64,000 nucleotides of DNA, taken from NCBI GenBank assembly GCA_965208325.1, contig OZ242326.1, positions 1,056,001-1,120,000 on the forward strand, given 5' to 3'. Both the position numbers and the translations under genes were made by a program. Source of the DNA: Candidatus Poribacteria bacterium (lineage in GTDB: Bacteria; Poribacteria; WGA-4E; PCPOR2b). Positions 1,886 to 63,725 of the stretch are shown here, one piece after another; position 1 is the first letter of the stretch; the number at the start of each line of letters is the position of its first letter. The notes beneath the pieces are model-generated. The model did no database searches. It was not told the origin of the DNA and saw only the letters and a program-made list of their open reading frames with translations.

Positions 1886-2020
1886 AGGGCAACCACAAGG
1901 GTTGCCCCTACAGCGTATTAGCCCAATTTGAGGGTAGTCGTTTTACACCTGCCGCCCCTCTGGGGCTAGATGTTGATGTGTAACAATGTTTTCTATATAC
2001 CTGTCGCCCCTCCGGGGCTA
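1886..2020. repeat. REP-like palindromes: GTAG-type REP (GTAGGGGCAACCCTTGTGGTTGCCCT on - strand, 1886-1911) plus two copies of ACCTGYCGCCCCTCYGGGGCTA
   Basis: Intergenic hairpins read directly; a related motif occurs in the opposite orientation near 44757. Confidence 0.65.
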
Positions 2021-2218
2021 TCCGGCGGTGGAATTATTTTGGAAAGATGTCTAATACATTAGCGTGATCGTAGTTCGAAGAAGCCGTGAATACGCGTAGC
2101 GATTATATTACGCCATTGACACACTTTGGACTCGACCTTCGGTTACAGTTAATCCCCCCAACCAATTCAATCCTACATTGCGTCTCGTTCAGTTCAATTA
2201 TTGGAGGAGAGATACAGC

Positions 2219-3973
2219 ATGATTTATCGCATTGCCATGTTCACCGTAGGTCTCGCTTGCATTGCGTTGTACGCTAACGCGGAAGAGCAGATCCTCTTTG
2301 TATCCGACCGAGACGGGAACAGTGAGATATACAGGTATTTCCCCGGCGGCAGACCCAAGAGGCTTACATTTGACGAAGGACCGGACGGCCATCCAGCGTT
2401 ATCCCCGAATGGGAAATCAATGGCGTATGTCACGACGATTAATCGGGTATCCCAAATCGCTGTGCTGGACTTCAACACCGGCAAACGCCGGCAACTGACC
2501 TTTTCGCCCAAGAACGACGTTCATCCCACATGGTCCCCGGACGGCAGACGAATCGCATTTTCGTCCAACCGCGACGGTGATTTCGATATTTATATCATGA
2601 ATAGAAACGGGACGAACGCGATAAATATGACCGATAATTCCCCTCTGCACGACGGATCGCCTCACTGGTCTCCGGCAAGCCAAAAGATTGTATTTACCTC
2701 TGAGCGGGATCGTCTAGCCCCAAAAGAAGTTTATGTGCTTGATTCCCAGGCTGGTAACCGGCGAAGACTCATCACTTCATCATCATTTGCGTTTAATCCC
2801 AAATGGTCACCGAACGGGTCACTGATTGCGTATTATTCTACGGACATGTCTGACACCTCACCGTCGACTACTCTTCTTTGGCGAGTGAAACCAGATGGTA
2901 CAGAATTGGAAGTATTGGTGGCTGAAGGGGAGTCAAATTCACATCCCAAATTTTCTCCTGATGGATCGTCAATTGCGTTTGTGTCTGAGAGAAACTTTAA
3001 CATGGACATTTATGCTTTAAACCTTGAAACCAAGGAGCTAACTCGCTTAACAACACATCTTGGCTACGATTCGCACCCCGATTGGTCTCCAGATGGAGAA
3101 CGGCTAGCCTTCCTTTCCAGCCGAGACGGGAATTCAGATGTCTTTACAATGACAGTCAACGGAGAGCACATCACAAACCTGACCATGAGCGGCATGAATG
3201 AGGGGTTTCCCACTTGGTCCCCTGACGGAGAAAAAATAGCGTTTAGTCGGTTAATGGGGGACAACAGCGTCAGGATTTACGCGGTTGATTCCGATGGTGA
3301 TAATGAGGTTCAACTGGTTGACTTGCCAGTTGCCAACCTCTACCCTGTCTGGTCCCCGCGCGGGAACAGACTGGCTTTTGTGAATCTCCCGGAACGCGGA
3401 GACCCGACACACCGAATTTATACGGTTGACCCCGATGGGATAAACCTACAAATGTTGTATGAAGATTTGCTCGAACCTATTGACGAAATTGCTTGGTCAC
3501 ACGATGAGTCTCAGATTGTTTTTGGTCGAACCAACAATGCAATCGCCTTTCTGGATACGGAGACAGGAGAAGTCCACTCAATAGATGTGCCTGTATGGAA
3601 TCTGAGTTCCCTAGATTCCTCACCCGACGGGGAGGACATTGTCTTTTCAGCGTTAAAGCCAATCGACAATCCAGTACCGCGCTTAGGAATCTCCATCATT
3701 GATACTGAAGGAACGCTCCTACGAATCGTCCCGACGGACCTGCGAATATCGTTGTTGAACCAAGGGCTTTCGTGGTCTCCCGACGGGAATACAATTCTCG
3801 TCAGTGACGAACATGGCATATACACGCTTGACTTGGACACCGAATCCGTTGAGCTATTCATCGAATCTGCCAGTTACCCGGATTGGCAGAATCCGTCTCT
3901 CCCGCGCTCAGTCACTCCTAAGAATAAGCTGAATACCATATGGGGTGAGATGAAATCCGGAGATACGCGTTGA
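2219..3973 (+). CDS. Secreted TolB-like double beta-propeller protein, tandem paralogue of 73..1830
   Basis: Collinear with the upstream paralogue over its whole length; WSPDG repeats; GGAGGAG SD before ATG 2219; C-terminal SVTPKNKLNTIWGEMK. Confidence 0.8.
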   Translation: MIYRIAMFTVGLACIALYANAEEQILFVSDRDGNSEIYRYFPGGRPKRLTFDEGPDGHPALSPNGKSMAYVTTINRVSQIAVLDFNTGKRRQLTFSPKNDVHPTWSPDGRRIAFSSNRDGDFDIYIMNRNGTNAINMTDNSPLHDGSPHWSPASQKIVFTSERDRLAPKEVYVLDSQAGNRRRLITSSSFAFNPKWSPNGSLIAYYSTDMSDTSPSTTLLWRVKPDGTELEVLVAEGESNSHPKFSPDGSSIAFVSERNFNMDIYALNLETKELTRLTTHLGYDSHPDWSPDGERLAFLSSRDGNSDVFTMTVNGEHITNLTMSGMNEGFPTWSPDGEKIAFSRLMGDNSVRIYAVDSDGDNEVQLVDLPVANLYPVWSPRGNRLAFVNLPERGDPTHRIYTVDPDGINLQMLYEDLLEPIDEIAWSHDESQIVFGRTNNAIAFLDTETGEVHSIDVPVWNLSSLDSSPDGEDIVFSALKPIDNPVPRLGISIIDTEGTLLRIVPTDLRISLLNQGLSWSPDGNTILVSDEHGIYTLDLDTESVELFIESASYPDWQNPSLPRSVTPKNKLNTIWGEMKSGDTR

Positions 3974-11421: not shown

Positions 11422-12168
11422 TCATCCATGGACTGCATCTGCGAATCTCTTCATTAACGAGAAGGAGTTTTGCTGTTCAATGACGTTTCCTGTCACAATA
11501 AAGTCCGCCCCGGCGTTTACCTTTGCAACAGCCAACTCCGGCGTCGTGATTCCTCCGCCCACTATGATAGGAATAGTAACGTGTTTGCGAACGGCGCCGA
11601 TTAATTCCTCCGGAACGGGTATTCTTGCGCCGCTGCCCGCCTCAAGATAGATGAACTTCATACCGAGATACTCCGCAGCAAGCGCGTGCGCCCACGCAAT
11701 GTCCAATTTATCACGCGGAAGCGGGGCAGTCCCGCTCATAACTTCAACCGACGTAGCAGTACCACCGTCAATAAGCATATACCCTGTGGATATCGCCTCT
11801 ATACCGCAACGGTGAATTAATGGCGCCGCTTTGACCTGCTCGCCGATTAGAAAATTGGCATTCCGGCCGCTGATTAGGCTTAGGTATAATATGGCATCGG
11901 CATGCTGGGATAGGTGCATAGAGTCCCCGGGGAACACAATGACCGGTAAAGACGTCTCGTCCTTCAAGGCTTTTGCAAACGGGTTGAGGTCATTTGTCAA
12001 GAGGCTGCTCCCCAGCAACAGTGCATCAACTCCTGCTTCTTCCGCTTGATGCGCAACATGCATGCAATCGGCGATGGAATGCCGATCGGGGTCTAAGAGC
12101 ACAATGTAGCCTGCTCTGCATCTTGACAGAACATTCAGTAGGTAATCTAAGGTTGAACCTGATTTCAT
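11422..12168 (-). CDS. Geranylgeranylglyceryl phosphate (GGGP) synthase, group II-like
   Basis: LLDPD, FPG, YLSLISGRN, GYMLIDGG, YLEAGSGA and IIVGGGI motifs of the PcrB/GGGPS TIM-barrel family. Confidence 0.92.
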   Translation of the reverse strand: MKSGSTLDYLLNVLSRCRAGYIVLLDPDRHSIADCMHVAHQAEEAGVDALLLGSSLLTNDLNPFAKALKDETSLPVIVFPGDSMHLSQHADAILYLSLISGRNANFLIGEQVKAAPLIHRCGIEAISTGYMLIDGGTATSVEVMSGTAPLPRDKLDIAWAHALAAEYLGMKFIYLEAGSGARIPVPEELIGAVRKHVTIPIIVGGGITTPELAVAKVNAGADFIVTGNVIEQQNSFSLMKRFADAVHG

Positions 12169-12246: not shown

Positions 12247-13440
12247 TCAGAGCCATCCGGAGCGTATGAGATGTCTCAATTCCAGTAGCAAGCGTGGTTG
12301 GTGCATCAACACCGTCTTAAAAATCTGCATCATGTTGACCTTGTCAGGCGGCATCTTTGACACCACCTCCGCACACTTGTCAAAAAGGTCATCACTGAAC
12401 TTAAGCACACCATCTCGTATTCGGCAGACGTGCTTGAAATTACTGCCAATTTCCTTGTCCCACCGGTTTTGATAAGCGCTCAAAATCTTTGCGGACACAT
12501 CTCCAATTCGGATAGCATCGACCGCCGCGTCGGCGGCAAATTGTCCCGAATACATTGCGTTTGCGACCCCGCCGCCAGAAATAGGATCGCTATGGTGCGC
12601 CGCATCGCCAATCAGCATAATCCCGTCACCCACAATCTTGGGCAGACTATTCCCTACCGGCACACAACCGACGACCTGCGCAAGAATTTTTCCGTGCGGA
12701 AATTTTCGTTTGACGAATTCATTTAGATAGTCGATGGCGAGCTTCCCGCCCTTACCGGAGATTGTCCCGCCGATTCCGATGCCGACATTCGCAATGTCAT
12801 CTCCTTTAGGGAAAACCCAGGCATAGCCTCGCGGCGCAAGCTCGCGGCCAAGGTAAAAATCGCAGAAATCGGGGATAATGCCAATCTTAGAAATTAAGTA
12901 TTGGGCGCAAATGTCCACGTCACGTAAATCGTGTGTGCTATCTATGCCCGCCCACCGCGCCACCTGCGATTCAATTCCGTCGGCAGCGATGACGACCTTC
13001 GCCTTACATGAGTAGTCACGTCCGAAATAACGGAATACCACCCCGTTGACGAAACCGCCATCTGACTTGGAAACGGTCGTCGCCCGTGCTTTAACGATAA
13101 TTTCGGCACCCGCATCCGCCGCCATTTCCGCCAAGACTCGATCGAAAACCTTGCGTTCTAAAACATAACCGGCGCCCGGAAAATGGATTGTGGCGGCGGT
13201 TTCGTTGGGAGAAAAGATTCGAGCGCCGTTAATTTCGCGCGAAACCCACGCCGGATCGGGCTGAATAAACTCGCACAGCGACGCTGTACCAATCCCCTCC
13301 GCTCAACGCACCGGCGCGCCAATTTCCTGACGTTTTTCCAACAACAAGACACGCAAGCTATTTTCTGCGGCAACCTTAGCGGCAATTGCACCCCCAGGGC
13401 CGGCACCGACAACAATGACATCATAGTCCGAGTGAACCAT
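12247..13440 (-). CDS. Geranylgeranyl reductase (digeranylgeranylglycerophospholipid reductase-like), candidate selenoprotein with in-frame TGA at codon 46
   Basis: One frame from ATG 13440 reads [17 protein letters not shown]...[16 protein letters not shown]...[17 protein letters not shown] and joins the ORF-track 295-aa fragment ([21 protein letters not shown]). TGA at 13305-13303; 397 codons in total. Confidence 0.9.
13273..13289 (-). promoter_or_regulatory. Candidate bacterial SECIS hairpin
   Basis: GUACAGC-GUC-GCUGUGC starts 13 nt after the UGA, with the apical-loop G at +21 followed by U. Confidence 0.6.
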
Positions 13441-13658
13441 CAAAAAAGTCCCCGTCCTTCGTACGCTGGGTAATACACCTTACCGTTTCGTTCTAATGCA
13501 AGCACGCCTACCGGGCAACCTTTGATGCATCGCGCACAGTCGGTGCACTTGGGCTGGTCTATTTTCAGATAGATATCAACGAGATCAATGATGTTCTCAG
13601 GACAGACGGCAACACAAGCCCCACAATAACTACAAAGTTCTTCGTCTATAAGAATCAT
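13440..13658 (-). CDS. 2[4Fe-4S] ferredoxin
   Basis: [12 protein letters not shown] and [12 protein letters not shown]; its stop overlaps the reductase start (TGATG). Confidence 0.92.
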
Positions 13659-13769: not shown

Positions 13770-14591
13770 TTAATTTACCGATTGAAACTGCCGCCGTCGG
13801 ACGTGTTCAAACAGTATTATTCCAGCGGCGACCGCAACGTTCAACGAGGATTGGCCAGGCGCCATAGGAATCTTGACAAGGTTGGTGCAAAGTTGGAGAA
13901 TTTCTTCCCTGATTCCTTCGTTTTCATTTCCCACCACAATCGCCAAGGGGGTACTAAGTTCCAAATCATACAGGCTCGTGTTCGCCTTGGCGGTGGCACC
14001 GAGAATCTCAAATTCAGCCGAAATCAACTGAGGAAAATAATCTTCCGGTGACTCGCAAAATGCCAGTGAACTGCGCCCAACAGCTCCTCTAGCAGCCCGG
14101 ACACAGTTCTTATGGAAGGGGTTTGCGCCTTCTCCGATGAACACGACGGAATCAACTGCCGCCGCTTCAGCGGTGCGCAGCACCATGCCAAGGTTATCCG
14201 GATTGGTGACACTATCGGCGATTAACAGCGTACTCTCAGCCGGCAGGTGAAGATCTGCCGCGTTCTGGTAATTCATCCAAACCGATGCGATCACGGCTGG
14301 AACCGGTCTCGTGCTGGTAATGGTCCCCATTAGTCCGGCGCTAAGCATAAATGGGGCGAATTTTGCTGCGGCGGAATTATTCAGTAATGCAACCCCCCGC
14401 TCATTCGCCAACAGGTCGGGAGTATAAAGGATTTTGTCAACCGGTAACCTGTCATGAACAGCACGATCGACGAGCGTAACGCCTTCGACCACAAATCTGG
14501 ACGCCTTCATTCTCCCGTTTAGTGAGCTAAGTTTGCGAAATTCAGAGATGATAGGATGCTTTTTACTGTTTATAACCGCTCGGTTCGCCAC
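13770..14591 (-). CDS. TrmH/SpoU family RNA methyltransferase
   Basis: NPDNLGMVLRTA, VGNENEG and IPMAPGQSSLNVAVA SPOUT motifs. Confidence 0.9.
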   Translation of the reverse strand: MANRAVINSKKHPIISEFRKLSSLNGRMKASRFVVEGVTLVDRAVHDRLPVDKILYTPDLLANERGVALLNNSAAAKFAPFMLSAGLMGTITSTRPVPAVIASVWMNYQNAADLHLPAESTLLIADSVTNPDNLGMVLRTAEAAAVDSVVFIGEGANPFHKNCVRAARGAVGRSSLAFCESPEDYFPQLISAEFEILGATAKANTSLYDLELSTPLAIVVGNENEGIREEILQLCTNLVKIPMAPGQSSLNVAVAAGIILFEHVRRRQFQSVN

Positions 14592-14597
14592 TTTTGC

Positions 14598-15446
14598 CTA
14601 TGGGGAGGATCCAAGGTAGATTGCCCCCAATCCAATGAAAATGTCCCACTTCATCCATTTTTGAATCTGTGCGCTGTTGGCTCTGGAATCATTCCGCCAA
14701 AGCCGATAGCCTAGATATATTAATACCAAATCCACACCTACGATAACGGTTAAAAGATAATGCCACGAATACCAATTCAGAAAATATGGAATCGGACTGA
14801 ACAATATAACCGCGGCGATAAAGATGAGTGCAATCAGCACGGCAACCCGTTTTCCCCAAACTACAGGAATTGTACGCGCATCGTGCCGGACATCACCCTC
14901 CGTGTCCTCAATGTCTTTAATTATCTCTCTTGCGGTGGTAAACAGTAGCGCAAATACCGCCGGAACGAACGTACCGGAAACAGTCCGCACCGAGGTTCCT
15001 CCTACAATGAAAGTTAAGCCTGTCAGTACCCCAACTAGGAGATTACCGAATAACGGTGTTTGTTTCAAGCAGAACGCGTACAAGACAAGACAACCGGACA
15101 CGGTGACGGTAATTGCCGCAGTATGCAGGTTAACTGTAAACCCAAACAAGATTCCCAGTCCCATCAATGTTATAGAAAACACCATAGCGCCTTGTCGGGA
15201 AATCCTTGCGGACGGAATCGGACGATCGGGTTTGTTAATCCGATCTATCTCGTAGTCACAATAGTCGTTGAGCGCATTGCCCGCCGATAGGAGCAGAAAC
15301 GCCGAACTCGCTGCCAACAACACATTGATATTAGTTACGACGACCCATTCCCCCAACCCGACTGCAAACATCGCTCCGAGATAGACAGAGAAAAAAGCGA
15401 TCAATCCGTTTATTGGACGTGAAAGTTGAAGATAAGCTGTAATCAT
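14598..15446 (-). CDS. Digeranylgeranylglyceryl phosphate (DGGGP) synthase-like UbiA prenyltransferase
   Basis: RPIN, NDYCDYEIDRINKPDRPIPS and AREIIKDIEDTEGD motifs as in archaeal DGGGPS; multiple TM helices. Confidence 0.82.
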   Translation of the reverse strand: MITAYLQLSRPINGLIAFFSVYLGAMFAVGLGEWVVVTNINVLLAASSAFLLLSAGNALNDYCDYEIDRINKPDRPIPSARISRQGAMVFSITLMGLGILFGFTVNLHTAAITVTVSGCLVLYAFCLKQTPLFGNLLVGVLTGLTFIVGGTSVRTVSGTFVPAVFALLFTTAREIIKDIEDTEGDVRHDARTIPVVWGKRVAVLIALIFIAAVILFSPIPYFLNWYSWHYLLTVIVGVDLVLIYLGYRLWRNDSRANSAQIQKWMKWDIFIGLGAIYLGSSP

Positions 15447-15474: not shown

Positions 15475-16542
15475 TTACGCTTCGCGGCCCGGATATGTGA
15501 TGCCGAATCTAACGGAATAATACCAGCGAACGAAAATTAGGCTTCCAGCGAGCAAAATTATGTAAAATGGGGCTAAAACACAAGCGATAAGTGAAAGAAT
15601 GAGTATACCTGCCCGTGCCGCGAAGATAATAACCCTTCGTTCTCTCCTGAAGTTCATATAAATGAAAGGCGGTAAACAGAGTAATGCGGTAAATAATGGT
15701 ATCATATCTTTGACCCACCATGCGGCCAAAATTGCGCCCACCAATAGCACCAAGCTCAACAAGCAGGATAGCTTGGCGCCTAATATTACGCCGGTCGTAC
15801 GATCTCCGAACTCACTGTCGCCGTTCAAATCCGGGAGCGTCGTGTTGACAAAGGCTGCCCCCACACACAAGGCATAAGGGATTATCCGCCGCAAGGCTTC
15901 GCCGTTCATCGGCGCTGCTAACCCCCAGCCGATTAAAAATGCGATGCCGCCATAGCCGGCGGCGTTGGCTAGAAGGTCGAGGAAGGGTCTCCCTTTTAAT
16001 CGAACTGGACGAATGGAATAAACGACGCCAAGTAAGATTGAAAGCCCAATTAGGACGAGATAGCTCAGGTTGTTTCTAAACCAGAAACCTGCCCAAACCA
16101 CGGCAGAAACAAGTAACATGCCGGCTTCCAACACAAGCAGCCGAATTTTCACATGTCCCTGCGCAACGAGAAAGAGTTTGTTGTTTGCTGCGTCTGTTTC
16201 TTTGTCACAGATTTGGTTGATGATGTAAATTGCCCCCATCAGCATAGAGTACAAACAGAGGGTACCCAGCAACTCATGATTGGGACGAACCAAAATATTA
16301 AATTTCGGCAGAAATGCGAGCTGTACTGCCCTCAATCCTTCGTATGTAGAAGTGTCAGACAATGCGCCATAATAGCCAAGCAACACAAGGGTCCAAACCG
16401 GCAGCAGCAGTGTTGGACGAAGGACAATTATATAATCCAAAAGATGTATCGCGCTGCGTTTCGTGGGTTGCAGCTTAGTTTGAGTGAGTGAATTTCCCAT
16501 TCCAAATCCGACTGCGCCTGAGATGCCGCGTCCACAATACAT
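15475..16542 (-). CDS. Second UbiA-family prenyltransferase, substrate unknown
   Basis: LRP, NQICDKETDAANNK, YSIRPVRLKGRP and LPDLNGD motifs; about 8-9 TM helices; alternative start ATG 16500. Confidence 0.8.
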   Translation of the reverse strand: MYCGRGISGAVGFGMGNSLTQTKLQPTKRSAIHLLDYIIVLRPTLLLPVWTLVLLGYYGALSDTSTYEGLRAVQLAFLPKFNILVRPNHELLGTLCLYSMLMGAIYIINQICDKETDAANNKLFLVAQGHVKIRLLVLEAGMLLVSAVVWAGFWFRNNLSYLVLIGLSILLGVVYSIRPVRLKGRPFLDLLANAAGYGGIAFLIGWGLAAPMNGEALRRIIPYALCVGAAFVNTTLPDLNGDSEFGDRTTGVILGAKLSCLLSLVLLVGAILAAWWVKDMIPLFTALLCLPPFIYMNFRRERRVIIFAARAGILILSLIACVLAPFYIILLAGSLIFVRWYYSVRFGITYPGREA

Positions 16543-26701: not shown

Positions 26702-27803
26702 TTAAGTTTGACTTCTCTTTTTCAAGTAACTTTCGATAAAATTATCTAAATTGCCATCCATGACTGCGTCAATGTTTCCCGTTTCAACATTAGTCCGTAA
26801 ATCTTTTACTAGCCGATAGGGATGAAACACATAGGATCGGATTTGATTGCCAAAATTGATATCCGGGCGTTCTCCCTGCAGCTTCGTAATCTCTTCGCGG
26901 CGGCGCATCTGATAATGTTCGTAGACCCGTGAACGCAATACTTTCATTGCCAATTCCCGGTTCTTATGTTGCGACCGCTCATTCTGGCATTGGGCGACAA
27001 TTCCTGTTGGAATGTGAGTCATCCGGACTGCGGAATCTGTTCGGTTGACATGCTGTCCGCCGGCGCCGCTTGATCGATAAGTATCAATTCGCAGATCGGC
27101 GGGTTGGATGTCAATATCAACAGTCTCACCGATTTCAGGAGAAACGGCAACCGCGGCGAATGAAGTGTGGCGGCGGTGATTAAAATCGAATGGCGAGAGA
27201 CGGACAAGGCGGTGGACACCGACTTCTGCGCTGAGGTAACCGTAGGCATAGTCGCCTGAGACCAAAACGGTCGCACTCTTGATTCCCGCTTCTTCGCCGG
27301 GCATCAGTTCTATGGTTTCGGTTTGGTAGCCGCGGCGCTCACACCAACGCGTATACATTCGCAAGAGCATGAACGCCCAGTCCTGGGATTCTGTGCCGCC
27401 GGCACCGGGGTGAATAGTCAAGATAGCATTACTTATGTCATGCTTACCATTAAGCAGGAGCATGGTTTCTACCTGCTCAATTTGCTCCTCAATACCATCT
27501 AGATTTCTACTAATTTCTCCGCTTACACTCTCATCATTTTCTTCGATTGCCAATTCAAGTAGAATCTGAATATCTTCGAGCTGGGAGTAAAGTTTCCCAA
27601 ATTGTCCAATTTCTTCCTGTAAATTTGCGAGCCGCTGCGTGACTTTTTGGGCGTGTTGAGAGTTATTCCAGAAACCCGGTTCTGACGCCTCCCTTTGAAG
27701 TGCGTCTATCTCTTCCGCTTTACTCGCAATGTCAAAGACACCCCCTGAGATCGAGGAGTCGATTAGAGACCGCTTGGATATTGAGTTTCAAATCAGCTAA
27801 CAT
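26702..27803 (-). CDS. prfB: Peptide chain release factor 2 with programmed +1 frameshift
   Basis: ATG 27803, 23 codons, then AGGGGG-TGT-CTT-TGA-C. The +1 frame continues DIASKAEEID...FWNN into the SPF and GGQ motifs. Confidence 0.96.
27731..27746 (-). promoter_or_regulatory. RF2 frameshift site (internal SD + CTT TGA C)
   Basis: AGGGGGTGTCTTTGAC on the minus strand. Confidence 0.93.
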
Positions 27804-45124: not shown

Positions 45125-45925
45125 TCAAGCCAAGTATTTCCCGGGCGATCTGGTGCGTTCATATGCAGCTTCAGGATCGCGCTTAAGGATAGCCTCCGGC
45201 ACCTCATCGGTCCAATACTTCGGCGCAGTGCACGGGCGATCGTGCCATCCTAGCAACAGCGTGCGCCGCTGTGTACTGCGGTTACCACGCGCCGCATGCA
45301 GCACGCGCCCCTCACCAATGACCAGAGAACCTGCGGTCGCCGGCACATCAATGGCGTCGGGATGATCGTAAAACATATGCGGATCGCTCTCTGAAACGTA
45401 ATATGCCCCTTGTTCATGAGCGGGCGTCAGGCGGTCGTGCAGCGGAATGCGGTTGAGATGCGTCCCGGGAATCACTCGAAAACACCCGTTTTCTATGCTC
45501 GTATCCACCAGATAATAGGATAGGAATATATACTGTACCCATGGCGCCGTGCTTATCGGGTCGTTCCAGCGCATCCAGTCTTGGTGCCAATAGAGCGGCG
45601 GCGCACCCGGCGGTTTACTGAGGATAATGAATCCGCCGTGGGAATAGAAATCGTCCAGTTGCATCGCGTTAAGTACCTCCCACGTCGGTTCCCAGTGAAT
45701 TAACCGGTCAATTACCGGTTCCGCAGTGCCCCGTACCGACAGATCAGAACCCTGGTACTTCCATTCCGGAGGGTGCGCTACAGAATCAAGCAACCGGTTG
45801 GTCTCCCGCCGCAACTCGTCAAGAAAATCATCGGACAATAACTCCTCCACCACGCAATACCCATCCTTGATTAACTGGTTGCGCTTCTCAAGCGCGGTAT
45901 CAGGTTCCACGATAACCGGGTTCAC
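45125..45925 (-). CDS. Phytanoyl-CoA dioxygenase (PhyH) family Fe(II)/2OG oxygenase
   Basis: DGYCVVE, WHQD, ENGCFRVIPGTH and LHAARGNRS..RR. Confidence 0.9.
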   Translation of the reverse strand: MNPVIVEPDTALEKRNQLIKDGYCVVEELLSDDFLDELRRETNRLLDSVAHPPEWKYQGSDLSVRGTAEPVIDRLIHWEPTWEVLNAMQLDDFYSHGGFIILSKPPGAPPLYWHQDWMRWNDPISTAPWVQYIFLSYYLVDTSIENGCFRVIPGTHLNRIPLHDRLTPAHEQGAYYVSESDPHMFYDHPDAIDVPATAGSLVIGEGRVLHAARGNRSTQRRTLLLGWHDRPCTAPKYWTDEVPEAILKRDPEAAYERTRSPGKYLA

Positions 45926-57023: not shown

Positions 57024-58583
57024 GTGAACACCAACCAATCCGAAATCGAACGGCGGCTGTGGAGCGCCGCCGATGAACTCCGCGCCAATTCACGGCTGCG
57101 GCCGTCTGAATATTCAACGCCGGTTCTCGGTCTAATCTTCCTTCGCTACGCCGACCACAGGTTCACGCAGACAGAATCCGAAATAAACCGCGAACCGACC
57201 GCGGGGCGGCGCAGACGCGCAGACAAAACCGAATTTCAGGCGCGCGGCGCATTCTACCTCCCAGAGACCGCACGATTCAATCATCTCCTAAACCTACCGG
57301 AGAGCGAAAACATCGGGCAAGCGATCAACAACGCCATGAGGGCAATCGAAGAGGAAAACAGACAGGTTGACGGCGTCCTGCCCAAGACCTACAACCGGCT
57401 CGAAAAGGCCACGCTGCTTGAACTGCTCCGCATCATGGAACGTATTCCGATGGACATTGAGGGCGACGCCTTCGGCAAAGTCTACGAATATTTCCTCGGC
57501 AACTTCGCCATGACCGAAGGCGCGCGCGGCGGCGAGTTTTTCACCCCAACCTCGCTCGTTAAGCTAATCGTCGAAATCATCGAACCGTTCCAAGGACGCA
57601 TCCTCGACCCCGCCTGCGGCTCCGGTGGCATGTTCGTCCAGAGCGCCGATTTCGTGCAGCGGCACCGCGAAAACGGTAACGGGCAAATCAGCATCCACGG
57701 AATCGAACGCGTCGCTGAGACTATCCGCCTGTGCAAGATGAACCTCGCCGTCCACGGACTCGAAGGCGACATCAAGCAGGCAAATAGCTACTACGATGAC
57801 GCGCACCGCGCCTTTGAAAAATTCGACTTCGTCATGGCGAATCCCCCCTTCAACGTTGACCGCGTGGACAGGGAACGTATCAAAGACGACCCGCGTTTCC
57901 CGTTCGGCATGCCCCGTGTGGACAACGCCAACTATCTCTGGATTCAACTCTTTTTCAGCACGCTTAACACCTTCGGACGCGCCGGCTTTGTAATGGCGAA
58001 CTCCGCAGCCGACGCCCGCGCCTCAGAGCTGGAAATCCGCCGGCAATTTATCGAATCCCGCGCCGTTGATGTCATGGTCAGCATTGGGTCTAACTTCTTC
58101 TACACCGTTACGCTGCCCTGCACCCTCTGGTTCTTCGACAAGTCGAAAGCGCACGGCGATAGGCGGGATACTGTGTTGTTCATCGATGCCCGCCACATTT
58201 ATCATCAAGTCAGCCGCGCACATCGCGAGTTTACACCCAAACAACTGGAGTTTCTAGCCAACATTGTCCGGCTGCATCGCGGCAAACCGCCCGAAAACCG
58301 GCACGACAGTGCGGAACTGATGGGGTCGAAGTTCACCGATGGCGCGTATGCCGACGTGCCCGGTCTCTGTAAAGTCGCGTCAATTTCGGAAATCGAAGCG
58401 CAAGGCTGGAGCCTCAACCCCGGACGATACGTCGGCGTCGCCGATCGCGAGGCGGATGCCTTCGACTTCGCCGAGCGGTTGGGCGAACTCAACGAGGAAC
58501 TCGAAATCCTGAACGCCGAAGCGCATCAGTTAGAAGAACGTATCGGTGAGAATGTAACCATGATTTTGGAGGAGGCGAGGTAA
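57024..58583 (+). CDS. hsdM: Type I restriction-modification methyltransferase subunit M
   Basis: [23 protein letters not shown] (motif I), ANPPF (motif IV) and SLNPGRYVG. Confidence 0.95.
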
Positions 58584-58585
58584 GT

Positions 58586-59017
58586 TGTTAGAATCAGGAT
58601 ACTCAGGATAGGAGGATTTTCAGGATGATCGAGGATAAACTGACATATCAAATCATCGGTTGCGCAATGGAAGTACATAAAGCCCTTGGGAACGGTTTTC
58701 AGGAAGTAATTTATCAGCGGTGTCTCGCAATTGAGTTGGACAGGGCTAGGCTCAGTTTTGGTCGAGAGGTGGAGCAACCTATCTTTTATCGGGGTGTTGA
58801 AATAGGAACTAGAAGAGCCGATTTTATTGTCGCCAATCGTGTCGTCGTTGAATTAAAAGCTTTGACTGCCCTTGAGGACGTTCATATTGCACAAGCTAAA
58901 AACTATGTGGTTGCTTACAACTTTGAAATCGGGCTTCTGATTAATTTCGGTGCGATTCGTTTAGAATACAAACGCATATTCAACGATAAAAAGAACCCCG
59001 TGAATCCAAATTCAGAC
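58586..59017. mobile_element. Inverted-repeat-bounded unit carrying a GxxExxY gene
   Basis: Left end TGTTAGAATCAGGATACTCAGGATAGGAGGATTTTCAGGAT; degenerate inverted right end AACCCCGTGAATCCAAATTCAGAC. Confidence 0.55.
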
Positions 59018-59032
59018 GAGGAGCCGAAATGA
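58625..59032 (+). CDS. GxxExxY protein (PD-(D/E)XK nuclease-like)
   Basis: IIGCAMEVHKALGNGFQEVIYQ, RADFIV, VVELKA, QAKNY and GLLINFG. Confidence 0.92.
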   Translation: MIEDKLTYQIIGCAMEVHKALGNGFQEVIYQRCLAIELDRARLSFGREVEQPIFYRGVEIGTRRADFIVANRVVVELKALTALEDVHIAQAKNYVVAYNFEIGLLINFGAIRLEYKRIFNDKKNPVNPNSDEEPK

Positions 59033-59054
59033 TTTCGGACGACGGGGTGTGAAT

Positions 59055-59127
59055 GGTCAGAATCAGGCTACCAGGATACTCAGAATGACGACAGTGACAG
59101 CCAATCCTGTAAATCCTGATTCAGACA
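59055..59127. repeat. Short non-coding copy of the CAGGAT inverted-repeat element
   Basis: GGTCAGAATCAGGCTACCAGGATACTCAGAAT...AATCCTGTAAATCCTGATTCAGACA. Confidence 0.7.
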
Positions 59128-59527
59128 GAATTCTGCAACATTTTAAAAGGAGGCGATGTAAAACCAGAAATATCCAAAATTTTGTGAGGTTTTGTGACAT
59201 ACACGGAAGTTTCGGCAAAACTGATGATCCGCTAAAACCGCATCACAAGCGGATTTTAGCGAATTTTACAAGTCCCATTTTCCACGTCACAGACCGCCTC
59301 ACACATTGTGACAAAGTGTGACGTGAGACTAAAATTATGATAACGCCAAAAATCCGCCGAACCCTTATGATAAGCGGACTAACACGGATTTCACTGATGA
59401 AAAATGATATGTCACACTCAACCTCACATAATGTGACATCGTGTGCGTTTTTGTGACATACGATATTGATGGATAGGCGGGTCACAACCGAGAAAAAATT
59501 ACTACTTCTGTAGAGGAGACTTATAGC

Positions 59528-59814
59528 ATGGATAATGACCGAAAAAAAACACCACCAGCCGCAGCGCTTGTTACGATTCGCAAGTCGCGGCTGTCACCGC
59601 ACGTGCACAAAAGGCGATTGCTGTACTCGACGGGTTGCTCGACAGCGAGGACGAAAAAATCCGCCTTCAAGCCGTTAGTTTACTCCTCAAGTTAACACCT
59701 TCGCTCAAAGAAGCCAATCCTAAATCAACTACGCAGGATTTGAGGGTGTATAGGGAGCTTAGCGATCTTTACAAGCCAATCGGATTGGAGCCCAAATTCC
59801 GCGAAGAAAAATAA
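59528..59814 (+). pseudogene. Small helical hypothetical gene split at an A8 run
   Basis: GAGGAG SD plus ATG 59528. A -1 shift at A8 (59542-59549) opens an 88-codon frame (..AIAVLDGLLDSEDEKIRLQAVSLLLK..) ending at TAA 59814. Confidence 0.45.
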
Positions 59815-59915
59815 AACACAGAGCACCACCCTGAACCCTGCATTTCCCTTAACAACGCGGTCAAGGGTTATGTTCATGTGTTTATAAGGAGGTTCTTGGT
59901 AGGTTGGGGTGCAAA

Positions 59916-60023
59916 TTGTCTGAATCAGGATACTCAGGATTATATGATTTTCAGGATAATAAACGGCAGCGGATAGAAAAACTCCTGTAAATCCTTTAAT
60001 CCGGTAAATCCTGATTCAGACAA
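59916..60023. mobile_element. 108-bp MITE-like element
   Basis: Perfect 16-bp terminal inverted repeats TTGTCTGAATCAGGAT / ATCCTGATTCAGACAA, with internal ~9-bp CAGGAT/ATCCTG subrepeats. Confidence 0.75.
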
Positions 60024-60052
60024 AATGTAACGATGATTTCGGAGTAAGCGGT

Positions 60053-61222
60053 GTGATTCCTACGACGAAAATTAAGCATCTTCCGATAGCGATTATTGAC
60101 GGAGACCGATCTAAAAGGTATCCGAAAAGAAGCGAATTTCGTCTCGGTACAAAAATTCAATCAGATAAAAAAAGGGCGGCTCCGACGCCTTGATATCGTG
60201 ATGACCACACGAGGGAGCATTGGAAAAGTGGCACTCTTTGATTGCCAACCTCCTACGGGGTTAATCAATGCACAGATGCTTATTCTGAGAGCCGATGGCG
60301 AGATAATTAATCCCAAATTTCTATTTTATCAGATTTGTAGCGAGGATTTTCAAACGAAGCTGAGAAACTTTGCGTCTGGTTCCGCACAACCACAGATTCC
60401 AATTATAGATTTAATGGAGGTTGAAGTTGCCGTTCCAGATTTACCTGTCCAGCATCAAATCGCCTCCATCCTCAGCGCCTACGACGACCTCATAGATAAC
60501 AACACCCGCCGCATCAAAATCCTTGAAGACATGGCGGCAACTATCTACCGGCAATGGTTCGTCGAATTCCGCTTCCCCGGCCACGAACACGTCCCAATGG
60601 TCGAGTCAGAGTTAGGATTGATACCGCAGGGGTGGGCGGTGAGCACACTCGGAGATTTGGCGGAATCCGTCAGACGTAATATCAAGCCAAGCGATGTAAA
60701 TCAACCAACACCATATTTTGGTTTAGAACACCTACCCCGAAAATCAATCGCCCTTACAAATTGGGCCTCTCCGATTCAATTAACAGTACAAAGTTGGGAT
60801 TCAAAAAGGGCGAAATTCTGTTCAGTAAAATTCGCCCCTATTTTCACAAAGTTGGTGTTGCGCCAATAGATGGCATTTGTTCATCGGATACAATCGTGAT
60901 ACGTCCAATAAAAAACGAATTCTTTGCAATTACCTTGTCTTGCGTTTCAAGTGAGCACTTTATCGAATACGCGACTACAACCTCCCAAGGAACAAAAATG
61001 CCACGAGCCGATTGGAACGTGCTTTCAGATTATCCACTTGTAATGCCACATGATCAAATTGTTCAGCGTTTCCGTGGTTTTGTTGACGATGCGATCGACA
61101 AAATTCAGAATATGATTTTTCGGAACAGAAACCTCCGTCAAACCCGAGACCTTCACCTTCCCAAACTCATCTCTGGTGAGATTGACATATCCGAATTTAA
61201 CATCGACATGGACGGAACATAA
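60053..61222 (+). pseudogene. hsdS: Type I R-M specificity subunit S, split over three frames
   Basis: GTG 60053 gives MIPTT..IIDGDRSKRYPKRSEF. After a shift near 60134-60140 come ..DIVMTTRGSIG..GSAQP..IASILSAYDDLIDNN..WFVEFRFPG. After a shift at GGG 60763-60765 come ..ILFSKIRPYFHK..GTKMPRADW..RDLHLPKLISGEID. Confidence 0.88.
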
Positions 61223-61474
61223 CTGCGTACAAATGCCAACGCAAACCCTGTATCCGTTTTAACGCATCATTGCAAAAACTATGAAAATTTCATAGTACCA
61301 TTTTTTCAAAAGTCGGCTAAACCCGCACCCTACCTACGTTTACTGACATTCGTCGCCCGCTCTTTTTCACAGTTTACTATGAAAACTATGAAATTCTGGC
61401 ACCAAAATCGCCCATCGCTTCACAGATACGAAAATTTTACAACAACCTGATATTAGCGAGAATTACGATTAACT

Positions 61475-61502
61475 TTCGCAATAAACCAATGTGTGATAAA
61501 AT
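61475..61502 (+). promoter_or_regulatory. Extended -10 promoter for the ATPase operon
   Basis: TTCGCA-16 nt-TAAAAT with TGn. Confidence 0.4.
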
Positions 61503-61547
61503 ATCTTCGTCTTATTGCCGTACACTAGCGAGGAAAGGTGCCCACCC

Positions 61548-62729
61548 ATGCCGCAAGCGAAACCATTTTTGGAAAAAGTTCATATCAAAAACTACCGGAG
61601 TTTGCGCGATGTCACTCTCTCGCTTAAACCAATAACAGTGCTAGTCGGACCGAACGCAAGTGGCAAATCAAATATCATAAGAGCCTTGAACGGTCTGAGC
61701 GCGATGATGATACGTGAAAGCCTGCCCCAAGTTCAGGCATTTCGAGACGCGCTTTGGGCAGGCGGTGCGAACGACATAGCTTTCCAATTACAAGCAAGAG
61801 TCGGGAAGTTCCTGGCCATATATGATTTGGTGCTTAAAGGGGATACTGATGAGACTTCAGTGGACGAGGCATTATTGGTAAACGATGTTCAAGTCATATC
61901 AATTCAGAGCGGCCAGGGCGTAGTTCAGGATGAGGATGGCACGACGCGGACAAAATACAAATCCAAAAAACTCGCTTTGAAATCGGCTGGCGATTACGGA
62001 AACAAGCCAGTTACAAAAGCCCTAACCCAGTACATTAAGGCTTGGGTAATTTCTGATTTACGACCGGAACGCATACGAGATGATTTCGAGGAATTTACGT
62101 TAGTTACAGCGGGACTAACTCCTGGTCAATCCAGTACGTTGCGTGACTCTTCACGGCATCGTAATAGACATGTAATATCTGCGCAACTCTGGTACTGGTA
62201 CGAGAACGATCGCGCGCGTTTCGACAGCGTAAGTTCATCCCTCGAAAATTCTACAAATTTCAGAATAGACCAATGCCCAATTGACGGAAACGATCAACTC
62301 TGTCTGTTGAAAGGATATGAGACGCCGCTAACTCTGGTGGGCGCATCTGACGGCACATTGAGTCTCGTCGCATACTACGTCATTCTCAACCAGCCCGAAT
62401 TACCACCACTTCTTGCCCTTGAAGAACCGGAGCGCAATCTCCACCCCGGAGTTTTGACCGACATTGCAAATGTCCTTGAACAGCTTTCCAAACGTACCCA
62501 AGTCATTATCACGACCCATAGCTCCCAACTCCTTGATGCCTTTAATAGTGAAAATTTGTCGGAGTCGTTGGGGGTTTTGCTCCTACGCAACCGCCCCGGT
62601 AGTGGGACGGAAGTTATCAACATTGAAGACATCCGCGAAAACAGAGCCTCCCTGGACGGTTGGATTACGGATTTCGGAATTGGCAGCGCGATTTTTGAGA
62701 GTGAACTTCTGCAAGACCTAATGGAGTAA
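61548..62729 (+). CDS. ABC/SMC-like (AAA_21-type) ATPase
   Basis: IKNYRSL, Walker A GPNASGKS, signature ASDGT, Walker B LALEEPE, NLHP and H-loop ITTHS. Confidence 0.9.
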   Translation: MPQAKPFLEKVHIKNYRSLRDVTLSLKPITVLVGPNASGKSNIIRALNGLSAMMIRESLPQVQAFRDALWAGGANDIAFQLQARVGKFLAIYDLVLKGDTDETSVDEALLVNDVQVISIQSGQGVVQDEDGTTRTKYKSKKLALKSAGDYGNKPVTKALTQYIKAWVISDLRPERIRDDFEEFTLVTAGLTPGQSSTLRDSSRHRNRHVISAQLWYWYENDRARFDSVSSSLENSTNFRIDQCPIDGNDQLCLLKGYETPLTLVGASDGTLSLVAYYVILNQPELPPLLALEEPERNLHPGVLTDIANVLEQLSKRTQVIITTHSSQLLDAFNSENLSESLGVLLLRNRPGSGTEVINIEDIRENRASLDGWITDFGIGSAIFESELLQDLME

Positions 62730-62734
62730 CCAGA

Positions 62735-63271
62735 ATGTCAACTGTAAGAATCTGGGATTTGAATTCGGATTACAACGCTATATCGGTCAAACGTATGACT
62801 GAAAAGTTGTCGCCAGATTTGCAACCTGCTGGACCACTAACGATCCGAACAGCCCGTAAAAAGGGGTTCCTGATTCGAAAAGGAAAAGGGAAAACCTTGA
62901 GCAACACATTGAGGAAGGCGATTCACCATTACCTCCAACAAGATGACTATGTCATTTTCGTCGCCGATTCCAATAGTCCGCCGCTGACACATCTACAACC
63001 ACAAACGTCGGACTCTTTAATCCGTCACGTTGAACAAGTCGTACAAGACAATATATTTGATGGCAAGGTATTCCTCGCACGAGGTATTCAGGAATTGAAA
63101 GCGTGGTTGCCAATTGTGCATAAATCTCTTGCAAGCCGCTCAACGAAATGGCAAGAAGAGTGGAACAGTGCCGTCGCGCTATTCCACGACGCCTTTGCCA
63201 ACACGCCTGAGAATGAGGTTGCGCGAGATCTTGATGAAACACTGGCGGAGGTGAGGCGTGAACGAACCTGA
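62735..63271 (+). CDS. Hypothetical protein: degenerate DUF4276/TOPRIM-like N-part plus antitoxin-like acidic C-terminal helix
   Basis: YVIFVADSN and IQELKAWL resemble the VVDxD/ELEAW motifs of ATPase-partner proteins; C-terminus ENEVARDLDETLAEVRRE overlaps the PIN gene start. Confidence 0.5.
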   Translation: MSTVRIWDLNSDYNAISVKRMTEKLSPDLQPAGPLTIRTARKKGFLIRKGKGKTLSNTLRKAIHHYLQQDDYVIFVADSNSPPLTHLQPQTSDSLIRHVEQVVQDNIFDGKVFLARGIQELKAWLPIVHKSLASRSTKWQEEWNSAVALFHDAFANTPENEVARDLDETLAEVRRERT

Positions 63272-63725
63272 AAATCGGTGGCGCGTTTACCGGATAACTA
63301 TTGACACCAATGTCCTTTTGCGTTCATTAATTGGGAGCAAAAACGACGCTAATCAACTGCTCTCCCTTTGGCATGAGTTGCGGTTTGTCCTTGTGTTATC
63401 GCAGGCAATTCTTGATGAAATACGGGAAGTTCTGACAAGACCCAATCTCACCCAAAAATATTCATATACGTTGCATTCAGTCACCAATCTAATCAATCTA
63501 TTGGGGCAACGAGCAGTCATTGTTGAAGTGCCTTTCTCATATGAATTATGCCGCGATGTTAAAGATAATCCGGTAGCCGATTGTGCGGTCTGGGGAAGAG
63601 TACAATTCTTGGTATCCTATGACAACGACTTCTTAGAAGATTCCACACTCAGACAAGTTTTGTTCGAATTTGGCGTTGAAATCGTTCATCCCGGTACCTT
63701 TCTGGAGACAATTCAGGGCACGTAA
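63258..63725 (+). CDS. PIN-domain putative toxin (PIN_3-like)
   Basis: IDTNVL, ILDEIREVL, CRDVKDN and LVSYDND acidic PIN residues. Confidence 0.88.
   Translation: MNEPENRWRVYRITIDTNVLLRSLIGSKNDANQLLSLWHELRFVLVLSQAILDEIREVLTRPNLTQKYSYTLHSVTNLINLLGQRAVIVEVPFSYELCRDVKDNPVADCAVWGRVQFLVSYDNDFLEDSTLRQVLFEFGVEIVHPGTFLETIQGT

Follow-up and report, generated by a model that had tools for sequence, protein, structure and literature searches.

In the archaeal geranylgeranyl reductases (GGRs) of Sulfolobus acidocaldarius (SaGGR) and Thermoplasma acidophilum (TaGGR), an active-site cysteine (Cys47 and Cys45, respectively) lies behind the isoalloxazine ring of the flavin adenine dinucleotide (FAD) cofactor. 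This residue is essential in SaGGR, and published accounts speculate that it acts in electron transfer or flavin tuning (PMC6309074, PMC10821996, PMC12004948). Here we describe a gene of this enzyme family at positions 12247..13440, minus strand, of a 64,000-nucleotide stretch of Candidatus Poribacteria DNA (contig OZ242326.1, positions 1,056,001 to 1,120,000; hereafter the window), in which the codon for that cysteine is an in-frame UGA. An original prediction, made from the letters of the window, held that the gene encodes a recoded selenoenzyme and is not a pseudogene. All of the refuting tests named with it were run and none went against this reading, and comparative analysis strongly supports the gene as that of a selenoprotein, namely a selenocysteine (Sec) variant of a well-known enzyme family that appears confined to one order of Poribacteria.

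A review of May 2026 (PMC13188914), which describes itself as the most comprehensive inventory, counts 119 prokaryotic selenoprotein families and subfamilies. Flavoprotein entries in its Table 1 are CoA-disulfide reductase and type III sulfide:quinone reductase, and a geranylgeranyl or prenyl reductase is absent from that table; the supplementary tables, which lay outside the search, could name more. The term 'geranylgeranyl' was likewise not found by a term search in the deep-Sep paper or in a 2022 selenoprotein review. Our literature searches returned no report of a Sec-containing GGR, supplementary tables again lying outside the search, and no report in Poribacteria of a set comprising geranylgeranylglyceryl phosphate synthase (GGGPS), a digeranylgeranylglyceryl phosphate synthase (DGGGPS)-like enzyme and GGR. 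Sec use in Poribacteria as such is already known, the phylum being listed in a 2026 paper among those with Sec-type group 4 hydrogenases.

Results

A reductase reading frame interrupted by one UGA

A single frame opens with ATG 13440, closes with the TGA stop at 12249-12247 and holds 397 sense codons, its sole interruption being the TGA at codon 46 (13303..13305, minus strand), where the read-through translation reads EIGAPVR*AEGIG. The motifs listed in the original prediction are intact in this translation, namely GAGPGG (GxGxxG), PRGYAWVFP (PxxYxWxFP), LIGDAA (GDAA) and PISGGG (PxxGGG). Automated calling of open reading frames (ORFs) does split the gene, as had been anticipated: the longest call under translation table 11 spans 12247..13134 (295 amino acids) and begins at the first common in-frame start after the UGA, at about codon 103. 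TGA terminates 18 of the 46 ORFs in the window, those of the reductase and of the neighboring ferredoxin among them, and is thus an ordinary stop here, which excludes a reassigned genetic code.

The same truncation pervades the databases. Among the matches listed (120 proteins), those at least 68% identical to the read-through protein are 283-346 amino acids long and are missing the FAD-binding N-terminus, and full-length proteins (393-449 amino acids, mostly 393-401) start at 67% identity and are Cys forms. The names carried by these listed relatives are 'NAD(P)/FAD-dependent oxidoreductase', 'geranylgeranyl reductase family protein' and 'digeranylgeranylglycerophospholipid reductase'. Because the listed Sec-form entries are truncated at the N-terminus, annotation and symbiont metabolic reconstructions are wrong at this gene.

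Family membership, fold and the residue at position 46

The read-through protein scores 230 bits against TIGR02032 (cut-off 158.8) and 88.6 bits against the Pfam family GGR_cat (PF22578; cut-off 27), which places it in the GGR family. By sequence, its nearest solved structure is that of TaGGR (PDB 3OZ2; E=3e-77, residues 5-392 aligned), followed by the SaGGR structures (E ~6e-32). An AlphaFold2 model computed from a 28-sequence alignment has a mean predicted local distance difference test score (pLDDT) of 90 and a predicted template modeling score (pTM) of 0.89. Compared using Foldseek, it matches 3OZ2 with template modeling (TM) scores of 0.90/0.90, a root mean square deviation of 2.7 and 38% identity in the structural alignment, and matches SaGGR with TM scores of 0.82-0.84, thereby displaying the three-domain GGR fold. 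Residues G12, G14, G17, Y206, W208, F210, P211, G278, D279 and G289-G291 are invariant in the 28-sequence alignment.

Position 46 aligns with residue 45 of the 3OZ2 chain, without gaps around the segment PVR[C/U]xEG. Together with the published descriptions of the archaeal enzymes, this alignment puts codon 46 on TaGGR Cys45 and SaGGR Cys47 and bears out the original prediction that archaeal GGRs hold a conserved Cys where the poribacterial gene has UGA. The active-site Cys position of the family is accordingly occupied by a UGA codon, read here as Sec, instead of a Cys codon.

The Sec-type gene is the only GGR-family member of its genome above the cut-off. One other family match was considered as a Cys-type backup GGR and rejected; it scores 139 bits, below the cut-off, and reads NFKIGESL at the site, without a Cys.

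Distribution of Sec and Cys forms

With the read-through protein as query and a match defined as E<=1e-40, the reductase gene was found in 56 of 176 poribacterial genomes. Codon 46 is TGA in 40 of the 56, all of them in families f1-f4 of the window's order: 38 full-length copies, one split copy (in genome G029) and one contig-end fragment (in genome G124) that begins at residue 44 and displays the TGA. The fragment shares 68% identity with the window protein and the other TGA copies share 69-100%. TGA stands at the same codon wherever the copies could be parsed (19 of 19 in one set; the 38 plus the contig-end fragment in another). Thirteen stop-free orthologues, all outside the order (families f5-f11) and 49-67% identical, without exception read PVRCAE, and close Sec and Cys orthologues are 64-67% identical to each other; the remaining three copies are partial and do not reach codon 46.

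A more distant survey considered the best 80 loci from 185,579 species genomes. Sixty of these carry TGT or TGC (30 each) and 15 carry TGA, with two false pattern matches and three loci unparsed. All 15 TGA loci are poribacterial, and the TGT/TGC loci belong to Chloroflexota, Ignavibacteriota, LCP-89 and many archaea. The proposal that this codon would be TGA in several independent genomes and TGY in others thus holds both within the phylum and among farther homologues. No Sec-type GGR outside Poribacteria was present among the best 80 loci, and beyond these and the 120 proteins listed no search of other Sec-using phyla was made.

In a quick maximum-likelihood tree, computed with the Sec/Cys column masked and with branch support from the Shimodaira-Hasegawa-like approximate likelihood ratio test (SH-aLRT), 37 Sec sequences form one clade (SH-aLRT 99) nested among the poribacterial Cys forms, and the branching follows taxonomy. 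Since the Sec forms constitute one clade, the tree indicates that Cys gave way to Sec once, at the base of the order, and that the Sec form has since been inherited vertically.

A probable selenocysteine insertion element downstream of the UGA

Exactly 13 nucleotides after the UGA begins the hairpin GUACAGC-GUC-GCUGUGC (13273..13289, minus strand), composed of a 7-bp stem (13289-13283/13279-13273) and a 3-nucleotide loop, GUC (13282-13280), whose G falls at +21 and precedes a U, precisely as first described. The consensus of the bacterial selenocysteine insertion sequence (bSECIS), as given in PMC13188914 (legend of Fig. 2A), calls for a loop of 3-9 nucleotides, an upper stem of 4-16 bp and a minimum free energy (MFE) of at most -7.5 kcal/mol, with a G within the first two nucleotides of the loop (for the most part a G followed by G or U) and 16-37 nucleotides between UGA and loop. 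The window hairpin conforms to this model, with its 3-nucleotide loop, 7-bp stem, UGA-loop distance of 20 nucleotides and core MFE of -9.8 kcal/mol. For the 23-nucleotide core z=-2.7 (-2.71), and 1 of 200 shuffled sequences was as stable.

Comparison across the 38 full-length Sec genes (34 distinct sequences) reveals that the loop is G followed by G/U in every one (GGC in 15, GUC in 13 and GGA in 10) and that 33 of the cores reach -7.5 kcal/mol or lower on the 23 nucleotides alone. Aligned, the 38 sequences give 36 distinct rows; 97.2% of the cells of the 7-bp stem are paired, and three of its seven pairs display double compensatory changes, amounting to 26 cells (C-G/U-A, A-U/G-C and C-G/A-U/U-A). 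None of 500 shuffles reached the observed covariation score. When the partners are slid by 1-3 columns, pairing is 25-56% versus 88.9% in register (twelve pairs, both helices together), and RNAalifold independently yields the same seven pairs. At the homologous site, six or seven of the seven pairs can form in 38/38 Sec genes versus one to four in 13/13 Cys genes. The search for covariation that had been suggested for this hairpin was thus rewarded, the element being conserved with compensatory changes in the 38 Sec genes and missing from the 13 Cys genes.

The protein sequence also bears the imprint of this element. Of 125 twelve-codon segments across the gene, the one at codons 47-58 shows the least synonymous divergence (0.435 versus a median of 0.774), and the next-lowest segments overlap it. 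Residues 52 and 56 covary (Thr/Cys in 31 sequences, Ala/His in 4, Ala/Arg in 2 and Ala/Cys in 1), and these combinations are exactly those that keep two stem pairs; the alignment thus portrays a protein that bends to its RNA. A selenenylsulfide between Sec46 and Cys56 was considered and rejected, since residue 56 is Cys in 32 of the 38 Sec forms and His (4) or Arg (2) in the other six, which makes such a bond unlikely, and its identity tracks the RNA pairing. The only invariant cysteines among the 38 Sec forms are C178 and C339, none near position 46.

Beneath the apical hairpin, a lower helix may form at 13267..13295, minus strand (13295-13291/13271-13267), an uncertain feature taken from a single-sequence fold. 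Two extensions of the stem had been proposed. The GAUU/AGUU extension does fold in the single sequence, and its cells are paired at 77% across the alignment without a compensatory change. The more distal pairs are poorly kept, and covariation supports neither extension.

Selection and integrity of the gene

Selection was assessed over the 496 pairs formed by 32 equally long Sec genes. Before the TGA (codons 1-45), uncorrected pN/pS amounts to 0.080/0.720 = 0.11; over codons 59-397 it comes to 0.143/0.779 = 0.18. Jukes-Cantor-corrected dN/dS is ~0.05-0.06 on both sides of the TGA in unsaturated pairs only (231 and 100 of the 496), a restriction for which the uncorrected ratios over all 496 pairs are also given. 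Purifying selection thus acts on both sides of the TGA, and relaxed selection downstream of it, one of the outcomes named as contrary to the original prediction, is not what we find. Codons 1-45 encode the FAD-binding beta-alpha-beta segment; selection upon them argues that they are translated in frame, and they would be useful only when joined to the remainder of the protein.

These results bear on the possibility that the UGA simply terminates translation, leaving a split or truncated gene with a downstream product, or two polypeptides. The gene calls that recover only the downstream part, and the short database relatives, are what such termination would produce. A product starting after codon 46 would, however, be devoid of the GxGxxG FAD-binding segment, and the codons preceding the UGA are under strong purification. 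Moreover, the stop codon of the upstream ferredoxin gene overlaps ATG 13440, the next common start occurs only at about codon 103, and 37 of the 38 full-length copies contain no frameshift or second stop. We regard termination at codon 46 as very improbable.

The comparative data refute the view that the locus is a pseudogene or that codon 46 was wrongly sequenced or assembled, and we give this view next to no weight. In its favor, two relatives carry additional defects: the copy in genome G029 (G029:C2:1265194-1266383) is split by a change of frame near codon 115 and has extra stops, and the one in genome G135 bears a TAG at codon 65 as a further in-frame stop. Gene decay or assembly error could account for this damage. 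Set against it are the occurrence of TGA in 40 genomes of four families, the absence of any other stop from all but one of the full-length copies, the purifying selection on both sides, and the persistence of the TGA in sequence assembled elsewhere. As to the last, the original prediction asked for confirmation of the TGA in raw reads; contigs of four runs from four studies, one of them probably the source, contain it. The independent runs listed with this stretch are sponge metagenomes, and no RNA run is among them. Over the gene, the four sets of contigs differ by 0, 9, 18 and 21 substitutions with no indels, and the TGA and hairpin are untouched.

The host genome and its selenocysteine machinery

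The host is a Candidatus Poribacteria metagenome-assembled genome, that is, a sponge-associated bacterium with an archaeal-type gene set and not an archaeon. Its genome is a single 4.71-Mb contig, 95.6% complete. All four components that the original prediction singled out for a search (selA, selB, selD and tRNA-Sec) are present above curated cut-offs: selA (588.7 bits) adjoins selB (373.5 bits), the tRNA-SeC(tca) gene lies directly beside selB, and selD (376.8 bits) is itself of the Sec type, with its own in-frame UGA (KCAGUASKL). Across the phylum, selA was found in 164 of 176 genomes and is missing from four genomes with a Cys-form reductase.

In some systems Cys is inserted at Sec codons under selenium limitation. 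The UGA might correspondingly be read without selenium, as Cys (through a Cys-loaded tRNA-Sec or a near-cognate tRNA) or as Trp, giving an ordinary thiol or a substituted enzyme. In support of this stands the fact that the identity of the residue as Sec is read here from sequence. Such decoding is nonetheless difficult to reconcile with the complete Sec machinery of the genome, with a SelB-type hairpin that co-occurs strictly with TGA, with the retention of TGA across a whole order when TGY is one base away, and with the use of TGA as a normal stop in the window's ORFs. We consider it improbable.

Several further observations weigh against Sec decoding or against the enzyme model built upon it. 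Confidence in the AlphaFold2 model is low in the loops 39-43 and 286-289, which adjoin the active site. Five of the 38 hairpin cores are weaker than -7.5 kcal/mol on the 23 nucleotides alone, two of the five pairs of the lower helix are broken in about half of the sequences, and the extended fold is not thermodynamically unusual (z=-0.63 over 76 nucleotides and z=-0.65 over 63). A scan of 13150-13400 against Rfam gave no meaningful match (best E=1.5, an S-adenosylhomocysteine riboswitch, 14.8 versus 37 bits). Finally, selA was found in every TGA-form genome but one (G009; 730 contigs, 90% complete). With these points and the damaged copies taken into account, comparative sequence evidence makes it highly probable that codon 46 is decoded as Sec.

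Two features related to UGA decoding were noted in passing. A candidate prfB gene, encoding release factor 2 (RF2), the UGA-reading factor, lies at 26702-27800 of the window (minus strand) and contains PCRF and RF-1 domains, its ORF being short at the N-terminus. At ~27737-27731 the upstream frame ends ...LLDLRGCL-TGA at CTTTGAC, with AGGGGG before it, and continues in the +1 frame, as in the classical programmed +1 frameshift. Just upstream of selD is a repetitive stretch (L010 ~1989-3305; genome C1 ~4481766-4483082), which in one frame reads as units of the form ...APVTKNRITTPYRS(I/T)ALTA(H/P)TVG(A/G)ASCR..., suggesting a tandem DNA repeat of ~90 nucleotides.

An upstream ferredoxin as the likely electron donor

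Directly upstream of the reductase, a gene at 13440..13658 (minus strand) encodes a 72-residue 2x[4Fe-4S] ferredoxin recognized by Pfam Fer4 families. Its TGA stop (13442-13440) and the reductase ATG (13440-13438) share one base, an arrangement that points to coupled initiation at 13440. A ferredoxin homologue occupies this position in 67 of the 80 best loci, in bacteria and archaea alike. Other poribacterial families (e.g. genomes G042 and G041) encode fusions of the two proteins, 465-480 amino acids long, Cys-type and with the ferredoxin first. The window ferredoxin aligns to residues 5-76 of one fused protein, and the order within the fusion is that of the separate genes in the window. The GGR of Methanosarcina is reported to depend on the ferredoxin encoded at its own locus (PMC10821996). 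From this conservation, the fusions and the Methanosarcina precedent, we infer that the upstream ferredoxin is the likely electron donor of the reductase.

Gene neighborhood and the probable substrate

Directly downstream of the reductase, at 11422..12168 (minus strand), lies a gene for a GGGPS of the PcrB family (NF003198, 274.7 bits, cut-off 247; TIGR01769, 210.7 bits, cut-off 161.55), followed by hrcA-grpE-dnaK-dnaJ. On the other side, a DGGGPS-like UbiA prenyltransferase is encoded at 14598..15446 (minus strand; PF01040, 147.5 bits), and a second, divergent UbiA-family prenyltransferase of 355 amino acids at 15475..16542 (minus strand; PF01040, 64.5 bits); in 6 of 16 poribacterial loci the latter accompanies the cluster. 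A SpoU-type RNA 2'-O-methyltransferase gene (13770..14591, minus strand; PF00588, 118.9 bits) separates the prenyltransferases from the ferredoxin; only 4 of the 16 loci have it there, and it is probably outside the lipid function.

This neighborhood leads us to favor, with modest assurance, the geranylgeranyl chains of glycerol ether lipids as the substrate. In families f1, f3 and f4, the GGGPS gene follows the reductase directly and a DGGGPS-like gene is located two genes upstream. GGGPS is encoded by 54 of the 56 genomes with a reductase, the two exceptions being incomplete (73% and 64%), and in family f1 a genome has either both the reductase and GGGPS or neither (8 of 28 genomes for each gene). 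The highest-scoring models and the nearest structure are those of lipid GGRs.

A narrower but substantial chance is that the selenoenzyme acts on a substrate other than an ether lipid, for example the side chain of menaquinone, a polyprenol or glycan-carrier lipid, geranylgeranyl diphosphate converted to phytyl diphosphate, or a carotenoid- or sterol-type compound, the GGGPS neighborhood being incidental. This alternative is compatible with Sec decoding and concerns the substrate only. It draws on several findings that count against a role in ether-lipid synthesis. The protein falls far short of the equivalog cut-offs for digeranylgeranylglycerophospholipid reductase (NF041160, 295/780 bits; NF041080, 171/580; NF041385, 99.5/700) and is therefore not classed as an equivalog, so that the lipid substrate is drawn from gene context. 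The DGGGPS-like prenyltransferase is likewise below its cut-offs (NF009523, 245.7 bits, cut-off 269; NF009521 for DGGGP synthase, 231.7 bits, cut-off 296). The neighborhood with GGGPS and DGGGPS-like genes is missing in f2 and kept in only 8 of the 16 poribacterial loci. GGGPS is also far more widespread than the reductase (144 of 176 genomes versus 56; in f2, 102 of 112 versus 16 of 112), and most f2 Poribacteria would, from their gene content, make GGGPS products without this reductase. In the 95.6%-complete genome, CarS (PF01864) was not found and no glycerol-1-phosphate dehydrogenase (G1PDH) scored above cut-off; its five Fe-ADH_2 matches are GldA-like, AroB or alcohol-dehydrogenase-like. 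GGR homologues, moreover, act on other isoprenoids, e.g. sterols, as the accessible parts of PMC12004948 and PMC10821996 relate. Against the alternative, Candidatus Cloacimonetes have the same gene set, also without CarS or G1PDH, and their GGGPS and DGGGPS were shown to be active nonetheless, according to the part of PMC7852524 available.

The reductase has a patchy distribution; of the 20 species of genus g5 just one has it, and in f2, as noted, a minority does. About 32 kb from the reductase, the window encodes a PhyH (phytanoyl-CoA dioxygenase) family protein (45125-45925, minus strand), which is possibly linked to branched isoprenoids and possibly unrelated. A defence-type island occupies 57024-63725 (plus strand), with the type I restriction-modification genes hsdM at 57024-58583 and hsdS at 60096-60869, a gene of the PD-(D/E)XK nuclease family between them, an AAA_21/AbiEii-like ATPase at 61515-62729 and a PIN-domain protein at 63258-63725.

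Discussion

The explanation that we consider very likely as a whole is that the gene encodes a full-length, 397-residue GGR-family flavoenzyme with Sec at position 46, probably fed by ferredoxin and, somewhat more likely than not, saturating ether lipids. SelA, SelB, tRNA-Sec and SelD would decode the UGA at codon 46 under the direction of the intragenic hairpin 13 nucleotides downstream, and Sec46 would replace the essential Cys behind the isoalloxazine ring of FAD. The reductase would then take electrons from the translationally coupled 2x[4Fe-4S] ferredoxin encoded upstream and hydrogenate geranylgeranyl C=C bonds, likely on ether lipids made by the adjacent GGGPS and DGGGPS-like prenyltransferase. 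In such an enzyme the selenol may take over what the Cys is proposed to do, whether transferring electrons or tuning the flavin. Relative to Cys, Sec has a lower pKa, higher nucleophilicity and more easily reversed oxidation states. If the residue relays electrons or protons between the ferredoxin-reduced flavin and the substrate, these properties might, speculatively, speed turnover or make the site more resistant to irreversible oxidation in an oxygen-exposed symbiont. We advance only tentatively, as somewhat short of an even chance, the broader proposition that one order of Poribacteria makes saturated archaeal-type ether lipids in a selenium-dependent manner, with Sec relaying electrons or protons between ferredoxin and FAD.

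Should that proposition hold, the enzyme would stand as the first selenoenzyme of membrane-lipid (isoprenoid) biosynthesis, and the membrane composition of these sponge symbionts would depend on selenium supply. The gene would also add an enzyme of isoprenoid-lipid saturation to a list of selenoproteins in which thiol-redox proteins, formate dehydrogenases and hydrogenases predominate. The close Sec and Cys orthologues form a natural pair that offers a direct handle on the speculated role of the GGR active-site Cys, in effect a natural Cys-to-Sec experiment on GGR catalysis. The archaeal-type set of GGGPS, DGGGPS-like enzyme, GGR and ferredoxin in Poribacteria likewise extends the 'lipid divide' beyond the Fibrobacteres-Chlorobi-Bacteroidetes (FCB) group.

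The closest described systems define both what is familiar in this locus and what is distinctive. With the archaeal GGRs (Ta0516, 3OZ2; SaGGR, 3ATQ, 3ATR and 4OPC) the poribacterial enzyme shares its family, its fold and the GxGxxG, YxWxFP, LxGD and GGG motifs, and its position 46 falls on their active-site Cys; they possess Cys, whereas the poribacterial enzyme has Sec together with an intragenic SECIS hairpin, a bacterial host and scores below the equivalog level. The GGR of Methanosarcina acetivorans (Isobe/Ogawa et al. 2014, as summarized in PMC10821996 and cited in PMC7852524) also has a small ferredoxin gene beside it; that enzyme is a Cys form, and ferredoxin dependence in Poribacteria, some of which fuse the two proteins, is argued from such parallels. 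Candidatus Cloacimonetes of the FCB group (Villanueva et al. 2020/21, PMC7852524) likewise encode GGGPS, a DGGGPS-like enzyme and a euryarchaeal-like GGR with no CarS or G1PDH detected; they belong to another phylum, and the reductase described here is, very probably, a selenoprotein. In the known Sec flavoenzymes, a Cys that acts with the flavin is likewise replaced by Sec, and these too were found through Sec/Cys pairs and a downstream bSECIS. They belong to other families devoted to thiol/disulfide chemistry and sulfide oxidation, whereas GGR reduces unactivated C=C bonds in isoprenoid lipid metabolism.

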